A stretch of 64,000 nucleotides of DNA from an uncultured delta proteobacterium (lineage in GTDB: Bacteria; Desulfobacterota; Syntrophia; Syntrophales; Smithellaceae), in assembly GCA_903907985.1 (NCBI GenBank), contig CAIVQG010000030.1, positions 25,534 to 89,533 on the forward strand. Direction: 5' to 3'. This document shows positions 7,814-64,000 of the stretch, one piece after another (positions within the stretch are counted from its first letter, which is position 1; each line of letters starts with the position of its first letter). Both the position numbers and the translations under genes were made by a program. Under the pieces are notes generated by a model, which saw nothing but the letters and a program-made list of their open reading frames with translations, searched no databases and was not told the origin of the DNA.

Positions 7814-8110
7814 TCAGCGACGGTATTTTTTGTAGCCGCACCATACCCAGAAGACGCCCCACGCAGCAGCCACAGGTCCCAAGCCGACATAGAGAAACAA
7901 AATTGCGTTGCTCTCCCATGGTTGCAGAAAGGCGGCCGAGCCGGCGATCCAGAAGATAGTGATCAGGATGGCCAGACGTATCCATCCTGTGAGTGCCGGC
8001 AGCAGTCTAATGTTATTTCGTTCGGGTGTGGGCACGGATTTTCTGCCCATAAATCGGGGAAGGAACAATATCGCCAGGGCGATCGCCGCCACAACCAGAA
8101 ATTCTTGCAT
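7814..8110 (-). CDS. Small integral membrane protein, unknown function
   Basis: 98 aa with three hydrophobic helices. It sits directly upstream of kefG on the same strand. I recognise no family. Confidence 0.45.
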   Translation of the reverse strand: MQEFLVVAAIALAILFLPRFMGRKSVPTPERNNIRLLPALTGWIRLAILITIFWIAGSAAFLQPWESNAILFLYVGLGPVAAAWGVFWVWCGYKKYRR

Positions 8111-8285
8111 ATCTAAACCTCTTTACATAAACTCTACCGATTACCTGATGGTTCCCAGACAATCCGGCGGACTGGCTATAGCACAGATTTATCAATAATC
8201 CTATTATTTGCAAAGAACCGTTGACAAATTTGTAGATAATAAGCAACGTTGATTTGACATTTAATATCAGGAAAGGAGATTTCTT

Positions 8286-8912
8286 ATGGATCGTTTAAAC
8301 AGAATCATTGTCGTTGTTGCTTTTGCATTAATCATGATGGGAGTCCTGCCCTTGACAGCTGTCGCGGGCTCGGAATCGTCTTCTTCCATCGAGCCGATTT
8401 TTCAGAAAGCAAAACAGGATTACTTGCAGAAAAAAATCAATTCCTCGGCCCAACAGATTAAAAAGGGAGCAGCTTATATGGAATCTCAAGCTCAAGAAGC
8501 GTCGGCAAAGGGGAAGGAGGCTTTGACAGCATCGGCGCAGGAATTGGAAAAACTGGCGGATGATGTAAAAAAAGGAGCGGTAACCTCGGAAAAAAGAATG
8601 GAAGAATCATTTGCTCGTGCCTATCTTGCGTTGGCAGTAGATGCCCATATTAAATCAACTGAATCATGGACTCGGAAAGAGGCAGCAAAGGCCGGGGCAG
8701 CCCTTGATTTGGCCAATAAACATTTAGAAAAAAGCTTTACCTGGGCCGGGCAGAAAGTAGAAAAAAGTACACAGGATGTGATGAAAAAATCTGATGAGAT
8801 TTCACTGAAATTACAGAAAAAAAGCAACTTGATTGCGGAAGATGTCGGCAACAGATTGAAAGACGCGGGAAACGAAATTGAAAAATTCGGAAAAAGAATT
8901 GCTCCCCGGTAA
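8286..8912 (+). CDS. Secreted helical protein, unknown function
   Basis: 208 aa. An N-terminal signal peptide (VVVAFALIMMGVLPLTAVAG) is followed by K/E/A-rich helical sequence. A GGAAAGGAG RBS lies upstream. Confidence 0.55.
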   Translation: MDRLNRIIVVVAFALIMMGVLPLTAVAGSESSSSIEPIFQKAKQDYLQKKINSSAQQIKKGAAYMESQAQEASAKGKEALTASAQELEKLADDVKKGAVTSEKRMEESFARAYLALAVDAHIKSTESWTRKEAAKAGAALDLANKHLEKSFTWAGQKVEKSTQDVMKKSDEISLKLQKKSNLIAEDVGNRLKDAGNEIEKFGKRIAPR

Positions 8913-55951: not shown

Positions 55952-57136
55952 CTAATCAAAAAGGCCGGTTTTTTCCATCTCGGCAATCTGTTCCTCGTTG
56001 TAACCAAGTTCCTGTAAAACTGTCCTTGTGTCCGCACCGGCGGGGACGCCGATTTTTTTATATTTCGGTTTATAGGTGGAAAATTTGATGGGCAAAGCCG
56101 GCTGTCGAATTTTCCCGCCCTGTGGCAAATCGACGTCGACGACCATTCCCCGCTCTTTGATTTGTTGATTATTCAGAGCTTCCCGCACCGTTAATACCGG
56201 CTCCACACAGACATCAACCCGGCGGAAGATTTCTGTCCACTCATCCCTTGTTTTCCTCAGGAAAATATCCCGGATTTGCTTTTTAACTTCTGCTGAATTT
56301 GCGGGCATTATTCCGGCGGGTGATATTAAATCAGGCCGGCCGATGGTCTCAAAAAATACGGTACTAAACTGTGGTTCCAGGGAGCCGACGCTCATGTGCT
56401 TTCCATCTTTGGTTTCATAATAGCCATACAGAGAACCGCCGTTAAATATTGTGTTTTCATGATCCGGAATCTGGCCGTCGATTAAAGTGGAGGCGGCATA
56501 CACGTTGTTTAAAGCAATCATTCCATCGGTCAGGGAAATATCAATATACTGGCCCTGGCCGGTTTTGTTGCGGCCTATTACTGCCGCCAGTATTCCGATG
56601 ATCGCATTGGTTGTGCCGGATGCTGTATCAGCGATAAATGCACCTGGTGAAATAGGCACTTCGCCTTTGGGACCGGCATAAGACATGATTCCCGAGCGCG
56701 CCAAGTAATTAATGTCGTGTCCGGCCCTCTGGGCTTGCGGCCCCGTCTGGCCATAGCTGGATATGGAGCAATAAATAAGACCGGGATTCACCTGGCAGAG
56801 CGTTTCATAGTCGAGGCCCAGTTTGGCCATCGTGCCCGGCCGGAACTGTTCGATGACAATATCATAATGCATGATCAGTTTTTGCACAATTTTCTGTGCC
56901 CTTGAATCTTTTAAATTCAAATACATACTGCGTTTATTGCGTCCCAGATAAGCGGCCGAGGCGGAAATTTCATTGCCGGGAAGAAAAGGCGGCTGCATAT
57001 TTTTGGCATCGGGTCGCGCCTTGGAGACAATTTTCAGGACTTGGGCGCCCATGTCGGCTAGATGCAGCGTTGCCAGCGGCCCGGGAATGAGGTGGGTAAA
57101 ATCAAGAATTCTTAAACCTGTCAGAGGCACTGTCAT
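55952..57136 (-). CDS. Family III CoA-transferase (CaiB/BaiF family)
   Basis: 394 aa. Segments: LTGLRILDFTHLIPGPLATLHLADMGAQVLKI and the conserved GHDINYLA and GG....Y.T.DG. Confidence 0.85.
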   Translation of the reverse strand: MTVPLTGLRILDFTHLIPGPLATLHLADMGAQVLKIVSKARPDAKNMQPPFLPGNEISASAAYLGRNKRSMYLNLKDSRAQKIVQKLIMHYDIVIEQFRPGTMAKLGLDYETLCQVNPGLIYCSISSYGQTGPQAQRAGHDINYLARSGIMSYAGPKGEVPISPGAFIADTASGTTNAIIGILAAVIGRNKTGQGQYIDISLTDGMIALNNVYAASTLIDGQIPDHENTIFNGGSLYGYYETKDGKHMSVGSLEPQFSTVFFETIGRPDLISPAGIMPANSAEVKKQIRDIFLRKTRDEWTEIFRRVDVCVEPVLTVREALNNQQIKERGMVVDVDLPQGGKIRQPALPIKFSTYKPKYKKIGVPAGADTRTVLQELGYNEEQIAEMEKTGLFD

Positions 57137-57317: not shown

Positions 57318-58565
57318 TCACGAGGACCGCTTCACGAGATACGATATACGTTCCAAAAGCGGCGGATGCGAATAATAAAACCAGACATATAAAGGATGCG
57401 GATGCAAATTAGCCAGATTGTCTTTGGCCAGTCTTTTGAGGGCGCTGATCATGTGATCAGGAGTTCCCGTCAATTCCACAGCCATGCGGTCGGCTTCCCG
57501 TTCATAGCGGCGCATTAATGCGCCGCCGACTGGGCTTATGAAGAATCCGCTACAACCAAGATAAAGTGAGACCAGAAAAAGGCCGGCATAAAGCGGCGTT
57601 CCCGTTATACCGAAGGCACGATAGAGAACCGGGGCAGAAGCGACACAATAGACCAAATAAAGCCCTATAAGCGAGGCGGTAATCATCAGGATTAATTGCT
57701 TTAAAATATGTTTCTTTTTCCAGTGGCCGATTTCATGTGCCAGGACGGCTAATATCTCTTCGGCAGTGTGCGATGCCAGCAGTGTGTCGAACAAAACAAT
57801 GCGCTTGGTTTTGCCGATTCCGGTGAAATAGGCATTTGTATGCCGGGAGCGCTTGCCTTCGTCCACCGAATAAATGCCCTGAGCTTTCAGGCCTACTTTT
57901 GCCATTAACGACGCAATTTGCCCTGTCAGCGCTTCATCGGCGATGGGCTCGTATTTGTTGAACAACGGGGCAATGACTACCGGATAAATCCAGAGCATTA
58001 AAATTTGAAACGCCGTAAAAAATACCCAGGCCGCAAACCACCAGCAAGTCGGCAGGTAAACGATAAACGCCATAAAGGCACTTATTAAAATACCCATAAG
58101 AACGATAGAAAGGATTAATGATTTGAGCAGGTCGGTAAGCCACAGCCGCCAGGTAATGGTCGAAAAGCCGTACTTCTTTTCCAGAACAAAAGTTGAATAA
58201 AGATCAAAAGGCAATCCGGTAAGTCCGCCGATGGCGGCCAGCACGCCAAAAAAAATCAGCGCCTGCCCGATAAAGGGTATTTTACAGGCTATGATCAAGG
58301 TGACGAGCAGAGGTAAAAAAAGGAGCACAATGCCTAGTTCCACTAAATCATCAACAAGATTTTCCTTAGCGGCTAAACGGGTATTATCCACCGTGTAGTC
58401 CACCATTTTGGTCAATGTGCCCTCATCGATGACACCCTGAAACACAGGCGGGATCTCCTTGCCGTGTTGAAGTAAGTGGCGAATATTAAGCTGCTGCAAG
58501 GAATAGCGTAAGACGTACCGTCCGGCAAACAAAGCTAAAAAAAATATTATCAGTGTTTTTTCCAT
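57318..58565 (-). CDS. M48 family zinc metallopeptidase (Ste24/HtpX-like)
   Basis: Polytopic. The zinc motif is HEIGHWKKKH, with a distal EREAD. I prefer the start MEKTLIIFF at 58565; the ORF reaches 58613. Confidence 0.8.
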   Translation of the reverse strand: MEKTLIIFFLALFAGRYVLRYSLQQLNIRHLLQHGKEIPPVFQGVIDEGTLTKMVDYTVDNTRLAAKENLVDDLVELGIVLLFLPLLVTLIIACKIPFIGQALIFFGVLAAIGGLTGLPFDLYSTFVLEKKYGFSTITWRLWLTDLLKSLILSIVLMGILISAFMAFIVYLPTCWWFAAWVFFTAFQILMLWIYPVVIAPLFNKYEPIADEALTGQIASLMAKVGLKAQGIYSVDEGKRSRHTNAYFTGIGKTKRIVLFDTLLASHTAEEILAVLAHEIGHWKKKHILKQLILMITASLIGLYLVYCVASAPVLYRAFGITGTPLYAGLFLVSLYLGCSGFFISPVGGALMRRYEREADRMAVELTGTPDHMISALKRLAKDNLANLHPHPLYVWFYYSHPPLLERISYLVKRSS

Positions 58566-58615
58566 ACAGTTGCCGTTACCTCGGTTGTCAGTCTCCTGAC
58601 ATACATTTTGCAATC

Positions 58616-59335
58616 CTAACCTTTAGAACACGATTGTGCAATATTTAAAAGTACTGCACTAAGCGGTGCGTAACATTCCGGATGCGGCTGGGAAAAGTCG
58701 TCGATTCTTCCTACGATTCCGGCTACTTTTATGCCCGATATTTTTTCAATGGCGGTGCTGTTTTCTTCGATCATTTTCCGGGGTGTTGCCTCCCTTCCGC
58801 CATCGAGCAGGATAATTCCCGCAGGTGTTATATCCCGGTGACGCAGCGCCTCGATGGTCAAAAGCGTATGATTGATTGTCCCCAGGCCCGCCCTCGCGGC
58901 GATAAGCGGTGTTGCCCCTGTCATCTTTATCAGGTCGATGAGCATTAACTTTTCGGTTACCGGAACGAAGAGTCCCCCCGCGCCTTCGATGATCAACGGC
59001 GAATCAACGGTGCTTTTAGCGTCTATCTCCTCCATGATTTTCGCCCAATCAATTTCCACGCCCTCGTCTTGTGCGGCAAACAGGGGCGCCTTCGCGTTTT
59101 TCAGGCAGTAAACAACGGAATTGCCGGGGTCTTGTCCGTGCAGAGCCGGCACATGTTGATAAATAAACCGGGCGTCACTGTAGGGATCGCAGGCAGTTAA
59201 GCATCCTGTCTGTACCGGTTTCAGGTAGAAGGGAGTAAAACCACTGTTGTAGAAATATTGCATGCATAGCAATGACAGTACCGTTTTCCCGACGCCGGTG
59301 TCGGTTCCCGTGATAAATAATTTGAGAGATTTCAT
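58616..59335 (-). CDS. bioD: Dethiobiotin synthase
   Basis: 239 aa. Motifs: FITGTDTGVGKT and EGAGG. It overlaps the bioF stop (ATGA). Confidence 0.85.
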   Translation of the reverse strand: MKSLKLFITGTDTGVGKTVLSLLCMQYFYNSGFTPFYLKPVQTGCLTACDPYSDARFIYQHVPALHGQDPGNSVVYCLKNAKAPLFAAQDEGVEIDWAKIMEEIDAKSTVDSPLIIEGAGGLFVPVTEKLMLIDLIKMTGATPLIAARAGLGTINHTLLTIEALRHRDITPAGIILLDGGREATPRKMIEENSTAIEKISGIKVAGIVGRIDDFSQPHPECYAPLSAVLLNIAQSCSKG

Positions 59336-60471
59336 ATTATTGCTGCCTTTTTAAATTTTTCAATGAAATGGGTTACATCGTTTTTAGTATGCAGGGCGGT
59401 CATGCTGATGCGGAGAATAGCCTTGCCGAGGGGTACAGTCGGGTAACGGGCCGGCAAAACGAAAATATCCTCTGCAAGGAGTTTTGCGGATATATCGCCG
59501 GCGCGTTTTTCATCGCCTATGGTCAGGGCGATAATATGAGCGTCTCCGGATGCCGCAACTCCGGCCTCTTGCAGACCCTGACGCATCAGAGAGCTAACTT
59601 GAAGAAGATTTTTCCTTTCGTCGTCGCACTGTTCGATTATCTCCAGGATATGCAGCGCCGAAGCCGCATGTGCCTCGGGCAGAGTAGTTGTATAGATCAG
59701 CGGCGAGCAAAAATTAAAAAGATATTCCTTCAAAGTTGAGGATAGCAGGACAAAGGCCCCGAAAAGACCGAAAGCCTTGCCCAGGGTTCCCAAGGCGATG
59801 TCGGCTGCCGTGCGACCCAGACCACGCCCTTTGTTTCCCAGAGCACCAAAGGCATGCGCCTCGTCAATAATACTTAAAAATCCGAATTCTTCCTTGAGTC
59901 TGCAAAAACCGTCGATATCCAGCAAATCTCCGTCCATGCTGAAAAGTGATTCGGTCAGGACCGCTGTCCTGCCCGGGTTGCTTTTTTCGAGTCTTTTGCG
60001 CAAATGGGACAGGGAATTATGATTATAACCCGCAAAGTCCGCACCGCTTGAGACCATTCCTTTGACGGAGCTGGCATGGATGTGTTTGTCGAAAATAATG
60101 GTATCGCCTTTTTCCAGCAATGTGGAAATCAGGCCGAGATTAGCCTGATAGCCGCTCGGGAAAAAAAGAGCGTCTTCGTAACCGAAAAAAGCGGCATAGG
60201 CTCGTTCCGCCTCATTTATTAACCGGTAATTACCGGCCACAAGGCGCGAAGATGATGAAGATGTGCCATGGCTTCGGAAATTATCCGCGACCAGTAGTTG
60301 CAGCCGGGCCGAGGCGCCAAGCCCCAGGTAATCGTTGGAGGAGAAGTTCAATACTTTGCGGTTGCCGCAAAAAAGAAACTTACCCTTTTTCCGTTCTATT
60401 TCCAGCGGGGTGCGATAAAGTCCGGCCTGTTTCTGGCTTAAAAGTCTCTCGCGGTATCTGTTTGTAAACAT
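59332..60471 (-). CDS. bioF: 8-amino-7-oxononanoate synthase
   Basis: 379 aa. Motifs: AGLYR, NFSSNDYLGLG, DEAHAFG and the PLP lysine in GTLGKAFG. Confidence 0.85.
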   Translation of the reverse strand: MFTNRYRERLLSQKQAGLYRTPLEIERKKGKFLFCGNRKVLNFSSNDYLGLGASARLQLLVADNFRSHGTSSSSSRLVAGNYRLINEAERAYAAFFGYEDALFFPSGYQANLGLISTLLEKGDTIIFDKHIHASSVKGMVSSGADFAGYNHNSLSHLRKRLEKSNPGRTAVLTESLFSMDGDLLDIDGFCRLKEEFGFLSIIDEAHAFGALGNKGRGLGRTAADIALGTLGKAFGLFGAFVLLSSTLKEYLFNFCSPLIYTTTLPEAHAASALHILEIIEQCDDERKNLLQVSSLMRQGLQEAGVAASGDAHIIALTIGDEKRAGDISAKLLAEDIFVLPARYPTVPLGKAILRISMTALHTKNDVTHFIEKFKKAAII

Positions 60472-60905
60472 GCAAAAATCCTCTGGTAATGCTGCTGTAA
60501 AATTTCCCTGGAAAAGTTCGCATCATAATCCGCCAGGGCAAATAAAAATATTCCTTCCATAATGACTGTGTCGGAGGCAAAGGCTTGCAACCGGTGAGAA
60601 AACACTGAGGAGCTTTGCGACTGCAACTGACCTGCGAAAGTGTAGTTGCCGGGCGGCAACGGCCCGGGAGGTAATGAGCAGGTCTTGATCTTCAGTAGAA
60701 AGGCGTGTTTCGCGAAGTCTGTAAGATGGCGGACATGGGAAGCTCCCAACTGCGCCAGACTTTCCATGAGCAGGGTCGCCGACGGGGCGGCAAAATGTTT
60801 ATGCCCCGCAATGCTTTGGGCGGAAACTTCTGTGAGCCGGTCGAGCAGGACGAAGCCGACAAGCCCGGTATGAATGTTTATCTGAATTTCTTTATTCATC
60901 GACAT
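60438..60905 (-). CDS. Hotdog-fold protein, FabZ/FabA-like dehydratase candidate
   Basis: The segment GFVLLDRLTEV...GHKHF...ATLLMESLAQLG resembles the FabZ core (FLLVDRV...PG.L..EA.AQ). The start MSMNKE overlaps the KS stop (ATGTCGATGAATAA). The 3' end overlaps bioF by 34 nt. Confidence 0.55.
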   Translation of the reverse strand: MSMNKEIQINIHTGLVGFVLLDRLTEVSAQSIAGHKHFAAPSATLLMESLAQLGASHVRHLTDFAKHAFLLKIKTCSLPPGPLPPGNYTFAGQLQSQSSSVFSHRLQAFASDTVIMEGIFLFALADYDANFSREILQQHYQRIFACLQTDTARDF

Positions 60906-62127
60906 TCCCGCTTTTAACGACCAGGGCGCAGTTTTGTCCGCCAAAACCGAAGTTTTCCAAAAGCAGTGTCCGGGCCGCAGAACTTATTCCTTCCCGGACA
61001 AAGTTAATTCCCTTGTGGCAAGGCTTTTGGAGATTGCGAATGGCGGGAAGGATGTTGCCATGAAGACAGGTCAGGGCGACGGCTAGCTCCACCGCCCCGC
61101 AGGTGGCGGCAAGATGACCGAGCCATGATTTCAAGGCCAGAACGAAGGGTCTGTTGCTGCAGTGTGTGTCCCGGTAAAAAATGCGCTCAATCATGGCGGC
61201 TTCCATTACATCGTTGAGCAAGGTTCCTGTGCCGTGGGCGGAGATGACGTCGATTGCGGAGGGATCGAGCGCGGCTTCTTCCAGAGCGCGGCGGATGGCC
61301 TCTTCTTCATAAAGGCTTGACGGATCGGGAGCAGTCAGCGAATCCCCGCCGATAGAACTGCCGAAGCCGCAAATCTCACCATAAATCCGAGCGCCGCGGC
61401 GACGGGCGTGTTCCAGTTCTTCTAAGAGGAAAAAAGCGCCTCCCTCGCCGGGAACAAAGCCGTCGCGGTCTGCGTCAAAAGGACGGCTGGCGGCTGCGGG
61501 ATTGCCAGTCCGCCGGGAAATGGCTTTGGCCTTGCCGTACGCTAAGATGCCTCCGGAATGCAGGCGCGAATCGCCTCCTCCGGCCAGAGCAACATCCAGG
61601 TAGCCGTCTTTTATCTTGCGGAAGGCTTCGCCGATGGCCTGCGTTGACGCGGCGCAGGCGGCACCTGTTGTCAAATTCTCGCCGTGAATGCCTGTGCGCC
61701 CGGCAATGACTGCGGCGGCGGTATTGGGCAGGAAGCGGAGCATCCACAAGGCCATCAGGTCAGGTCTGTCCATTGCACCGTTGATGATTTCGGGAAACTC
61801 CGAGGTGATATCGAGATTCGGGCCGGCGCCAACGAAAATCCCGGCCTTGTTCAGTTCGCCTGTGGAGCATCCCGCATCTTTAATTGCCGCAAGCGCGGCG
61901 GCCACGCTGAACCCGGCGCCCCGGTTGAGGTAACGCCTCTCTTTGCAAGGTCCCGTGTAATTTCTGATATCAAAATCACGGACCGGACAGACAAAGGTGG
62001 TTTCATCCACCGGCGACCTGGTAAACGCCGTCTTGTTCTGCCGAATGCTGGCAATAACCTCGGAGGGACTAGTTCCCAAAGAAGAAATAATGCTATAGGA
62101 AGTGATTACTACTCTTCGGGCCATCAT
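60892..62127 (-). CDS. Beta-ketoacyl-ACP synthase, FabF/FabB type (Cys-His-His)
   Basis: 411 aa. The active-site Cys lies in TTGAACAAST and the two His in SAHGTGT and LGHLAATCG. The C-terminal segment is FGFGGQN. Confidence 0.85.
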   Translation of the reverse strand: MMARRVVITSYSIISSLGTSPSEVIASIRQNKTAFTRSPVDETTFVCPVRDFDIRNYTGPCKERRYLNRGAGFSVAAALAAIKDAGCSTGELNKAGIFVGAGPNLDITSEFPEIINGAMDRPDLMALWMLRFLPNTAAAVIAGRTGIHGENLTTGAACAASTQAIGEAFRKIKDGYLDVALAGGGDSRLHSGGILAYGKAKAISRRTGNPAAASRPFDADRDGFVPGEGGAFFLLEELEHARRRGARIYGEICGFGSSIGGDSLTAPDPSSLYEEEAIRRALEEAALDPSAIDVISAHGTGTLLNDVMEAAMIERIFYRDTHCSNRPFVLALKSWLGHLAATCGAVELAVALTCLHGNILPAIRNLQKPCHKGINFVREGISSAARTLLLENFGFGGQNCALVVKSGNVDE

Positions 62128-62759
62128 CAGATCCTGCGATAAATATAGTCAAGCGGGTTGCGCGGCGGCGGGGGCGGGTCTTCGTCCGCAAAGCCGACAG
62201 CAACCAAACATTTTACAGCGATTTCCTTTGCTCCGGTAATCTTATCCATAGTTTTGATAAAAGCCAACGGCGCCGTCAGGATACATGTCCCCAGGCCCAG
62301 TTCCTGCGCTTGCAGCATAAATCCCTGGAGGCTAAGCCCCAGTGTGATGTCGCCGTCCGCATCGTCTCTTTTTTGTGGAGTCTTTATTCCCGACTGCCGC
62401 AGCTCATGGGCAAAACCTCCTTCCGGTTTAACTGTCCCGACTGCAAAAAGAACGGGTGCCTGCAACATGAAGGCCGAATAGCGCCAGTAGGCGTTAATCC
62501 AGTTACGCAAATGTTTGGGACGGTTGCAGACGGCAGCTTTTGTTAAAAGCAGTTCTTTCCCCTCGAGCATGGCCATTTGAAGATTTTGGCGGCTGGCCGC
62601 CGATTCGAGGCGAATAAACCTAACCGGCTGCGTGTTGCGCGGCGATGGCGACCACGCTGCCGCCTCAATCAGACTTTCGATCCAGGCTTCCGGGGGAGGA
62701 GTTTCCTTGTATTTGCGAATACTGCGCCGCTGCCTCAATAAAGTGTTTAAATCAATCAT
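62127..62759 (-). CDS. Nitroreductase-family flavoprotein
   Basis: LLRQRRSIRKYKE...AAAWSPSPRNTQP is the classic nitroreductase N-terminus. The start MIDLNT at 62759 overlaps the ACP stop (ATGATTGA). Its stop overlaps the KS start (TGATG). Confidence 0.75.
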   Translation of the reverse strand: MIDLNTLLRQRRSIRKYKETPPPEAWIESLIEAAAWSPSPRNTQPVRFIRLESAASRQNLQMAMLEGKELLLTKAAVCNRPKHLRNWINAYWRYSAFMLQAPVLFAVGTVKPEGGFAHELRQSGIKTPQKRDDADGDITLGLSLQGFMLQAQELGLGTCILTAPLAFIKTMDKITGAKEIAVKCLVAVGFADEDPPPPPRNPLDYIYRRI

Positions 62760-63132
62760 TGTCTTTATTTTTCGTCTGCCATTCGATGTAGCTTTGAACA
62801 TCTTTCACCTTGAGCACCGGCCCGCCTTCTATATCCGCCAGAATTTCTTCAATCCTGGCTGTGGTCAGGGCGGGATAGCTTTCCGCTAAGTATTTCGCGG
62901 GATCAAAGCCTTCATCTTTGGCCTTTTGCAGATGGAGTCTTAGCGCCTTTACGAAAATTTCATCGTCTTTGACTTCAATATGAAAGTGGGCATTTATTGC
63001 TACGGCAAGCTCCAGCAAGTCGATGGATTCCGTACCCAATTCCCGGACCAGATAAGTTTCCGGTGTTATTTCCTGTCCTTCAATATCCAAAATTTCGGTG
63101 AGTATTTTTTTTATTTCGTCCAGTGTATCCAT
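62752..63132 (-). CDS. Acyl carrier protein-like (phosphopantetheine-binding) with a roughly 45-aa C-terminal extension
   Basis: 126 aa. LVRELGTESIDLLELAVAINAHF matches the ACP helix II context (DSL-type Ser at residue 36). Confidence 0.7.
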   Translation of the reverse strand: MDTLDEIKKILTEILDIEGQEITPETYLVRELGTESIDLLELAVAINAHFHIEVKDDEIFVKALRLHLQKAKDEGFDPAKYLAESYPALTTARIEEILADIEGGPVLKVKDVQSYIEWQTKNKDND

Positions 63133-63209: not shown

Positions 63210-63953
63210 TTATTTGCCGGTGGTCAGGCCGCCGTCCATGTTTAATTCTGTGGCGTTGAAGCCTGCCGCACTTGTCGAAAGAAGAAACAAGATAGTTTCC
63301 GCAACATCCCCGGTCGTCAGGAATTTACCGCCGGGGACCAAACGCAAAGCTTCTCCGCCGTGATTATCCAGATAAGTTTTTCCCCGACCGACCTGGATAT
63401 AGCCGGGCCGTAGCATTACTGTCGTGATGCCTTTCCCCCCCAGCTCGATGCCGAGATTGCGATAAAGAGCTTCAGAAGCCAGTTTGGCGGCGGCGTAGAA
63501 ACCCTGGCCAGGGTTGGGTTTGGCGGCAGCGGCGGAAGAAATAAAAACGAACCGTCCATATTTGCGCCGAACCATAATGCGGGCAACTTTTTTGAGCAGT
63601 TCCGCCCGGAAGGAGACGTTATTGGTGAAATACTGATAAACCTGTGCTTCATCGGCGGCAGCTATGAGACTTTCGAAGTCTTCCTGAGCAAAATCAACAC
63701 AAAAATCAATTTCCTCGCCTGTTTGGGCAAGGAATGCGGCCAGCGAATCACGCTCGCCAAAGTTCAGATAGCAAGCCTCATACTTTCCCCTTTGGTTGGA
63801 CAGGGCGGCGTCAATTTTTCCCCGGCCCAAAGCATTGCGGAAGGTCAAAACCGGATACAATTGTGCCTCGATCAGGGCTGTGGCCAGTGACAGTGCCAAA
63901 TCGCAACTGCCACCCAAAATCAGGGCTTTTTTGCCATTAAAATGCAGAGTCAT
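63210..63953 (-). CDS. SDR family oxidoreductase (ketoacyl reductase candidate) with an atypical dinucleotide motif
   Basis: 247 aa. It has the catalytic SSAAA...YAAAKLA (S...YxxxK). The N-terminal glycine motif is degenerate (ILGGSCDLAL). Confidence 0.7.
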   Translation of the reverse strand: MTLHFNGKKALILGGSCDLALSLATALIEAQLYPVLTFRNALGRGKIDAALSNQRGKYEACYLNFGERDSLAAFLAQTGEEIDFCVDFAQEDFESLIAAADEAQVYQYFTNNVSFRAELLKKVARIMVRRKYGRFVFISSAAAAKPNPGQGFYAAAKLASEALYRNLGIELGGKGITTVMLRPGYIQVGRGKTYLDNHGGEALRLVPGGKFLTTGDVAETILFLLSTSAAGFNATELNMDGGLTTGK

Positions 63954-64000
63954 CTTTGCAGTGTTCCTTCGGCCATTATTTTTCCGTCGTTGAGCAGTCG
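63950..64000 (-). CDS. 3' end of an upstream gene (ABC-ATPase-like C-terminal tail); the rest lies outside the window
   Basis: My own translation gives ..RLLNDGKIMAEGTLQR*. Its stop overlaps the SDR start (ATGA). The pattern resembles the V.L.dG.i..eG tail of ABC/ECF ATPases, but 16 residues is thin evidence. Confidence 0.3.
   Translation of the reverse strand, partial: RLLNDGKIMAEGTLQR

Follow-up and report, generated by a model that had tools for sequence, protein, structure and literature searches.

A nitroreductase-fold flavoprotein of a Desulfovibrio-type pimelate cassette as a candidate enoyl-acyl carrier protein reductase

The pimelate route of strict anaerobes without BioC/BioH, BioW, BioI or BioZ is biochemically unsolved, and the foremost candidate for it is the Desulfovibrio-type cassette. 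One such cassette occupies the right end of the minus strand in the stretch analyzed here (the window: 64,000 nucleotides [nt] of an uncultured delta proteobacterium, assembly GCA_903907985.1, contig CAIVQG010000030.1; G000:C30:25534-89533 in our numbering, G000 being the window's own genome). Read beyond the window edge, the full operon runs bioB-bioA-HD1-KR-ACP-NTR-KS-HD2-bioF-bioD and is divergent from birA, where HD1 and HD2 denote hotdog proteins, KR a 3-oxoacyl reductase, ACP an acyl carrier protein, KS a ketosynthase, and NTR a nitroreductase-fold protein. The question raised by this locus is which protein reduces the enoyl intermediate of the elongation cycle, and a first-pass annotation of the DNA had suggested NTR for this step. 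Based on the evidence presented below, we consider it an evenly balanced proposition that NTR is a dedicated enoyl-ACP reductase for omega-carboxy-enoyl chains carried on a special ACP.

The gene in question is the following:

62127 to 62759, minus strand: NTR, a nitroreductase-fold flavin mononucleotide (FMN) protein of 210 amino acids (aa), candidate enoyl-ACP reductase (PF00881)

The open reading frame (ORF) at this position, 62127..62801 (-), comprises 224 aa, or 210 aa when read from the ATG at 62759; the latter start is favored because the homologues are ~210 aa long and start at the same position. The protein matches the Pfam model PF00881 (Nitroreductase) over positions 1-166 of 167 (E 3.3e-29, 102.6 bits, cut-off 23.5). 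This match, together with the start common to homologues, upholds the first description of a 210-aa nitroreductase-fold protein between ACP and KS, and both motifs reported for it, RRSIRKY and SPSPRNTQP, are present. The tight coupling that had been claimed on both sides can be read directly from the DNA, as ATGATTGA contains both the stop of ACP and the start of NTR (8-nt overlap), and TGATG both the stop of NTR and the start of KS (1-nt overlap). Across 80 related loci, obtained from a scan with one genome per species, the gaps are mostly -14 to +20 nt from ACP to NTR and -4 to +6 nt from NTR to KS, with starts being estimated. In an alignment of 20 NTR homologues, R11, R12, S13, I14, R15, Y17, P38, S39, P45, and V46 are invariant, with little or no variation in the RRSIRKY and PSP..QP motifs. 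In this family, the N-terminal Arg/Ser motif and the P-S..Q-P segment presumably have an FMN-binding role. In addition, N86, N89, Y91, R93, and K150 are conserved residues specific to this family. NTR is a conserved, real gene and no chance ORF.

The AlphaFold2 (AF2) model of NTR has a predicted local distance difference test score (pLDDT) of 86.3 and a predicted template modeling score (pTM) of 0.81. A Foldseek search with this model returned 193 matches in the Protein Data Bank at E 0.001 or better; among the best 50 of these, nearly all are nitroreductase-type flavoproteins (two have generic titles), with template modeling (TM) scores to nitroreductase folds of 0.75-0.83, the best being 0.83. 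Within the same 50, the fold next nearest to the top structures 3eo8 and 3gfa is FbiB's C-terminal domain (TM 0.73-0.80), and fold and profile searches further matched iodotyrosine deiodinase, NOX, NfsA-type reductases, and Frp. No FabI, FabL, FabV, or FabK model was found among the NCBIfam or Pfam matches of NTR, its fold being that of a nitroreductase. For the predicted complex, two NTR chains, two FMN, and ACP were modeled and only the ACP partner was scored, which gave 0.54 as opposed to 0.00 for the best of three controls. In the calibration of this score, the mark was attained by 58 of 80 complexes with solved structures and by 2 of the 110 mismatched pairs; scores of 0.60 or less comprise just 7 of the 80 solved complexes, yet both of the passing mismatches. 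The runs agreed in at least 81% of contacts, with a partner pLDDT of at least 87. Structure prediction has therefore borne out the nitroreductase fold that was first proposed, but the support that the predicted ACP complex gives for carrier binding is weak, and it raises the odds only slightly.

The distribution of the subfamily ties it to biotin genes. Hundreds of ~210-aa homologues were found in genomes and metagenomes of Syntrophales and Desulfobacterales, the nearest ones in Smithella and Syntrophus metagenome-assembled genomes (MAGs, 60-68% identity). At all 80 species-level loci, NTR lies inside a bio cassette, so that its co-occurrence with bio genes, on which the earlier proposal was to be judged, is non-random. 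ACP is directly upstream at 77 of these loci (the other three are truncated by contig ends), and KS is downstream at 78. An exhaustive profile-free search gave 37 NTR clusters (50% identity) at E 1e-30 or better. Four distant relatives with 29-40% identity are still found in HD-KR-ACP-NTR-KS-HD-bioF cassettes, and a relative at 28% identity lies outside such a cassette and marks the family boundary. The nitroreductase fold, the intact FMN-binding motifs, the confinement of the subfamily to the cassette, and the constant adjacency to ACP are thus observed features of NTR. The candidate explanation of a generic detoxifying nitroreductase hitch-hiking in the operon was ruled out by the cassette context at 80 of 80 loci. 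Among longer proteins at E 1e-20, none had NTR fused to ACP, KS, or a hotdog domain, which is weak evidence. The module has a patchy distribution: of 401 genomes sampled evenly across the phylum, seven have NTR and eight, counting the window's genome, have a cassette-type KS (at least 45% identity), and the module was found in none of the seven genomes belonging to the same family as the window. Two single records stand apart. In one MAG, a 220-aa coiled-coil-like ORF with only weak apolipoprotein-type matches lies between the NTR gene and KS (L095:9532-10194, +). A record titled as a Methanosarcinaceae archaeon MAG (L052) has a typical bacterial HD-KR-ACP-NTR-KS cassette on a 9-kb contig, and probably reflects misbinning, not an archaeal copy.

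What NTR could contribute to the cassette depends on its partners, which are encoded in the window as follows:

58616 to 59335, minus strand: bioD, dethiobiotin synthase (TIGR00347, 126.2 bits, above the cut-off of 83.3)
59332 to 60471, minus strand: bioF, 8-amino-7-oxononanoate synthase (PF00155; TIGR00858, 328.2 bits, under the cut-off of 426)
60438 to 60905, minus strand: HD2, second hotdog protein, ~155 aa, FabZ-like predicted fold
60892 to 62127, minus strand: KS, FabF-like elongating ketosynthase, cassette-specific (PF00109, PF02801)
62752 to 63132, minus strand: ACP, dedicated acyl carrier protein, 126 aa (PF00550, E 8.7e-10)
63210 to 63953, minus strand: KR, short-chain dehydrogenase/reductase (SDR) of the 3-oxoacyl-ACP reductase type (PF13561, PF00106)
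63950 to 64000, minus strand: last codons of HD1 (hotdog protein, 115 aa, FabZ/ApeI-like), the remainder lying past the window edge

Upstream of HD1 and beyond the window follow bioA, bioB, and then the divergent birA. This operon is a Desulfovibrio-type pimelate cassette. Its KS scores 283.8 bits against the fabF model TIGR03150, under the cut-off of 493.75, and is 45-73% identical to cassette orthologues versus 34-39% to housekeeping FabF. In an alignment of 21 ACP sequences, E35, S36, I37, and D38 are invariant, Ser36 standing within the E-S-I-D attachment motif, and a C-terminal extension of ~45 aa with a GPVLKVKD motif is conserved. The best NCBIfam matches of the SDR are FabG models, every one of them under its cut-off, and the protein carries a YxxxK motif with the spacing classical for keto-reductases, as opposed to the Yx6K of FabI and FabL. 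HD1 (L005 484-831, -) has weak FabZ matches (TIGR01750, E 5e-6), and its homologues carry PF22818 or PF07977 (ApeI-like or FabA domains). HD2 has no Pfam or NCBIfam family match, and its AF2 model (pLDDT 86.9) has FabZ among its best folds (3d6x, target-normalized TM [TMt] 0.70-0.73), the ApeI:P dehydratase pair being matched too. No FabI, FabK, FabL, or FabV gene was detected in the cassette by Pfam and NCBIfam searches of its genes. The earlier statement that the cassette has no enoyl reductase gene accordingly holds for all of bioB, bioA, HD1, SDR, ACP, NTR, KS, HD2, bioF, and bioD, the candidate NTR itself aside. Given the FabZ-like fold of HD2 and the YxxxK of the SDR, enoyl reduction is therefore the sole activity of the cycle without a gene, and NTR is the only redox enzyme of the cassette without an assigned role.

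From this we infer the following substrate, reaction, and electron donor for NTR. It would be the FMN-dependent reductase of a Desulfovibrio-type route that builds pimeloyl-ACP on a dedicated carrier. In such a route, the cassette KS would condense malonyl units on the specialized ACP, the SDR would reduce the 3-oxo group, and the two FabZ-like hotdog proteins would carry out the dehydration. NTR, probably a homodimer with FMN, would accept two electrons from some donor and deliver a hydride from N5 of the flavin to the beta-carbon of a 2-enoyl thioester bound to ACP, its substrates being glutaconyl-ACP and then 2,3-didehydropimeloyl-ACP. The product, saturated pimeloyl-ACP, would go to BioF.

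The operons in which parts of the cassette are missing bear on this proposal in several ways. In genome G107, ACP-NTR-bioF stands alone, flanked by unrelated genes (L128:8325-10397), and in G073, ACP-NTR-bioF-bioD is followed by an alpha/beta hydrolase gene (L127:4520-8152). Other loci have bioB-bioA-ACP-NTR (L054) or bioB-bioA-ACP-NTR-KS (L055). Both G073 and G107 are small genomes (1.7-1.8 Mb, 96-97% complete), in which the queries used detected neither a cassette-type KS nor HD2, nor any BioC or BioW above cut-off. The part of the module that stays constant is thus the ACP-NTR pair, and this ties NTR either to a substrate on the carrier or to the carrier itself, and argues against NTR serving BioB. 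An electron-transfer or flavin-reductase helper, for the radical-SAM (S-adenosylmethionine) enzyme BioB or some other cluster enzyme and without action on the acyl chain, would be in keeping with the fold, as NAD(P)H:flavin oxidoreductases are common among nitroreductase-fold proteins (the Frp, NfsA, and NOX structures were matched), and with BioB requiring a reductant. Nevertheless, we regard this as the least probable of the explanations considered, as NTR adjoins ACP and never bioB at every locus, the ACP-NTR-bioF operons are separate from bioB, and the predicted complex with ACP (0.54, controls 0.00) gave weak support for carrier binding.

The short operon of G073 raises another alternative. 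Just upstream of it are found had, oah, and a dienoyl-CoA (coenzyme A)-hydratase-like gene (L127:985-4042, +), with had at 467 bits to TIGR03201 (cut-off 339) and oah at 490 bits to TIGR03200 (cut-off 464). All three correspond to steps of the benzoyl-CoA pathway, with 3-hydroxypimeloyl-CoA as the product. This adjacency could reflect a source of pimelate carbon or chance. In some lineages, NTR might then be the last reductase of a salvage route, in which a 2,3-didehydropimeloyl thioester, derived from the 3-hydroxypimeloyl-CoA of anaerobic benzoyl-CoA degradation, is converted to a pimeloyl thioester for BioF without de novo elongation. The order of genes in G073 and the lack there of a cassette KS, of HD2, and of BioC or BioW above cut-off fit this idea. 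However, it relates to one genome, since the sister G107 has the same short operon and no Oah above cut-off; moreover, an opposite-strand gene separates the had/oah group from the short bio operon in G073, and the idea is inapplicable to the full cassette of the window. We therefore hold it to be very improbable. In G000, G073, G107, G394, and G368, no BioC was found above cut-off (best 67.6 bits versus 185) and BioW was not found, which argues against a hidden methyl-ester route.

Several observations weigh against NTR as the enoyl-ACP reductase of the cassette. In G368, a KR-ACP-KS-HD2-bioF-bioD cassette (L124:1-4381) has no NTR, the slot being a 110-nt gap, although its proteins are 49-62% identical to those of the window (partial for KR, whose match is truncated at the end of the contig), and no member of the NTR family was detected elsewhere in this 93%-complete genome at E 1e-20. 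The high-GC, Desulfovibrio-like genomes G177 and G343 likewise have the cassette without NTR. The function is thus either replaceable or else not universal. Conversely, the retention of ACP-NTR without the rest of the cycle is not predicted by a simple model in which NTR completes a private cycle as its fourth enzyme. Outside the cassette, the window's genome also contains a FabI-like gene (NF006019, 311 bits, partial sequence) and several FabK-like genes, so a housekeeping reductase, or a ferredoxin-nitroreductase fusion described below, could do the reduction instead. In the NCBIfam searches, NTR falls far under the cut-off of every named nitroreductase subfamily, Acg included (BluB TIGR02476, 35.7 bits against 150; FbiB C-terminal domain TIGR03553, 42 against 249.6; RutE NF003768, 36.6 against 152; NfsA NF008033, 29.6 against 223), and by its sequence belongs to no characterized subfamily. 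The closest solved structures by profile and fold, 3eo8 (a BluB-like flavoprotein) and 3gfa (a putative nitroreductase) of Clostridium difficile, match over the full length (E 8.7e-23 and 4.1e-21; TM 0.77-0.83), but these are structural-genomics entries without assigned function, share 22-23% identity with NTR, and are uninformative on the substrate. Finally, in the literature on DVU1220 (a nitroreductase-family protein of Desulfovibrio vulgaris, see below) and on pimeloyl-ACP with nitroreductase, enoyl-ACP reductase, or biotin, no enzymatic evidence was found for any member; the sole relevant work was Trotter et al. 2023 with its preprint, and a biochemical follow-up was not found.

Some of these same observations favor a different role, in which housekeeping FabI or FabK does the enoyl reduction and NTR another flavin-dependent step on the ACP-bound dicarboxylic chain. 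Such a step might belong to priming or immediately precede BioF, and could for instance be needed because of the unprotected omega-carboxylate. The FabI-like and FabK-like genes of the genome would supply the reductase, some full cassettes do without NTR, and ACP-NTR is kept where KS, KR, and the hotdog proteins were lost or never present, which ties NTR to the carrier and BioF more than to the complete elongation cycle. Against this stands that saturated pimeloyl requires no redox step beyond KR and the enoyl reductase, that no neighboring gene or relative points to a chemically specific alternative, and that in D. vulgaris the essential housekeeping reductase is no substitute for DVU1220 (PMC10102598). 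We judge this role to be unlikely, though less so than the helper or the salvage reductase. A further suggestion of the first-pass annotation, that NTR makes or unmasks the omega-carboxyl, gained no result in its favor. The proposal of an enoyl reductase itself stands in part: it is favored by enoyl reduction being the only step of the cycle without a gene, by the invariance of the FMN motifs, by precedents for C=C reduction, by the confinement of the subfamily to bio cassettes, by the biotin requirement of a DVU1220 mutant in a relative, and weakly by the predicted ACP complex, but it does not predict the operons with ACP-NTR only, and the NTR-less cassettes and the housekeeping FabI/FabK-like genes count against it. 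A broader form would accommodate the short operons. NTR would then represent a new structural class of enoyl-ACP reductase for omega-carboxy-enoyl chains on an extended ACP, with ACP-NTR, and not the whole miniature fatty acid synthase (FAS), as the indispensable core, able to work with the housekeeping FAS or with 3-hydroxypimeloyl-CoA from aromatic degradation where only ACP-NTR-bioF is kept. This broader form is, in our view, rather doubtful.

Further features were noted around the cassette. A candidate BirA operator is present in the birA-bioB spacer (L005:3209-3241), consisting of TTGTCAACC, 15 nt, and GGGTGACGA; it lies ~2.7 kb past the right window edge and ~70 nt upstream of the bioB start, overlaps the birA 5' end, and resembles the delta-proteobacterial BirA sites in the table of PMC545781. 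Window positions 55952-57136 (-) and 57318-58613 (-), downstream of bioD and in its orientation, encode a family III CoA-transferase and an M48 (Ste24-like) peptidase. In alpha-proteobacteria, the glutaryl-CoA of the BioZ route is made by a CaiB-type CoA-transferase. In the 80 related loci, tblastn retained no match to this CoA-transferase/peptidase pair within 9 kb of NTR, and its adjacency to the bio cassette is probably unrelated. Outside the window, G000:C74:3575-5793 and 7980-8585 hold two divergent nitroreductase paralogues, with an SDR gene and a crotonase-like gene that contains an in-frame TAA beside them; together they form a separate small redox locus.

Among characterized enzymes, the reduction of C=C bonds by a nitroreductase fold has precedents in the FbiB C-terminal domain and CLA-ER. 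The FbiB domain (4xom/4xoo/4xoq) shares the fold with NTR (query-normalized TM [TMq] 0.66-0.76, TMt 0.75-0.80, among the best 50 of 193 matches) and performs the FMNH2-dependent reduction of the enolpyruvyl C=C, conjugated to a carboxylate, in dehydro-F420-0 (PMC6450877). However, it is only ~20% identical, is one domain of a two-domain ligase, and acts on a deazaflavin intermediate and no acyl-ACP. CLA-ER of Lactobacillus plantarum (4qlx) is also of the nitroreductase family and is titled as an enone reductase acting on a fatty-acid chain, but its profile match is weak and confined to the N terminus (E 1.7e-5), and it uses a free oxo-fatty acid as substrate rather than an ACP thioester. In cofactor and reaction, the role proposed for NTR resembles that of FabK (enoyl-ACP reductase II), which is FMN-dependent and has a TIM-barrel fold; unlike FabK, NTR has no TIGR03151 match, and the FabK-like genes of the genome are encoded elsewhere. 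If the proposal is true, a nitroreductase-fold class would join the known enoyl-ACP reductases (FabI, FabL, FabV, FabK, and medium-chain dehydrogenase/reductase types), and the pathway would be complete and could be rebuilt in vitro or transferred to production strains.

The idea that an in-cluster nitroreductase-like protein is the enoyl-ACP reductase is already published. The extended bio operon was described in Desulfovibrio by Rodionov et al. 2004 (PMC545781), matching the order found here apart from NTR, and randomly barcoded transposon sequencing (RB-TnSeq) has shown that biotin-free growth depends on it (Trotter et al. 2023, PMC10102598). The latter study found candidates in the cluster for all elongation activities except the enoyl-ACP reductase, reported nitroreductase-like genes in the bio clusters of Syntrophobacter fumaroxidans and Desulfobacter vibrioformis, and proposed their product as the possible missing enzyme. 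These two in-cluster proteins share more than 40% identity and are no more than distant relatives of DVU1220 of D. vulgaris Hildenborough, whose mutant requires biotin for growth (PMC10102598). The window NTR is thus a further member of a described, biochemically uncharacterized subfamily, and the window a clean, complete example of the cassette, of modest value since the idea is already in print. Added here are the cassette context at 80 of 80 loci, which extends to the relatives with 29-40% identity, and ACP-NTR as the constant core of the module. DVU1220 resembles NTR in being a nitroreductase-family flavoprotein of a host with the same kind of cassette; it differs in being encoded away from the cluster and in its predicted [4Fe-4S] in addition to FMN (PMC10102598). 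A protein with the architecture described for DVU1220, a nitroreductase with an N-terminal 2x[4Fe-4S] ferredoxin domain (~300 aa), is encoded in the window's own genome (G000:C15:226-1152, +, locus L116). It is 28-30% identical to its matches in the Desulfovibrio-like genomes G177 and G343, and a similar 286-aa ferredoxin-nitroreductase fusion is found in G343 (L131:1456-2316). NTR itself is 44% identical to the protein of a Syntrophobacter sp. MAG (L105) and 42% to that of D. vibrioformis DSM 8776 (L100), where a member of the same subfamily occupies the same slot in an HD-KR-ACP-NTR-KS-HD-bioF order; in comparison with the hosts of Trotter et al., the window comes from a Syntrophales-like genome instead.

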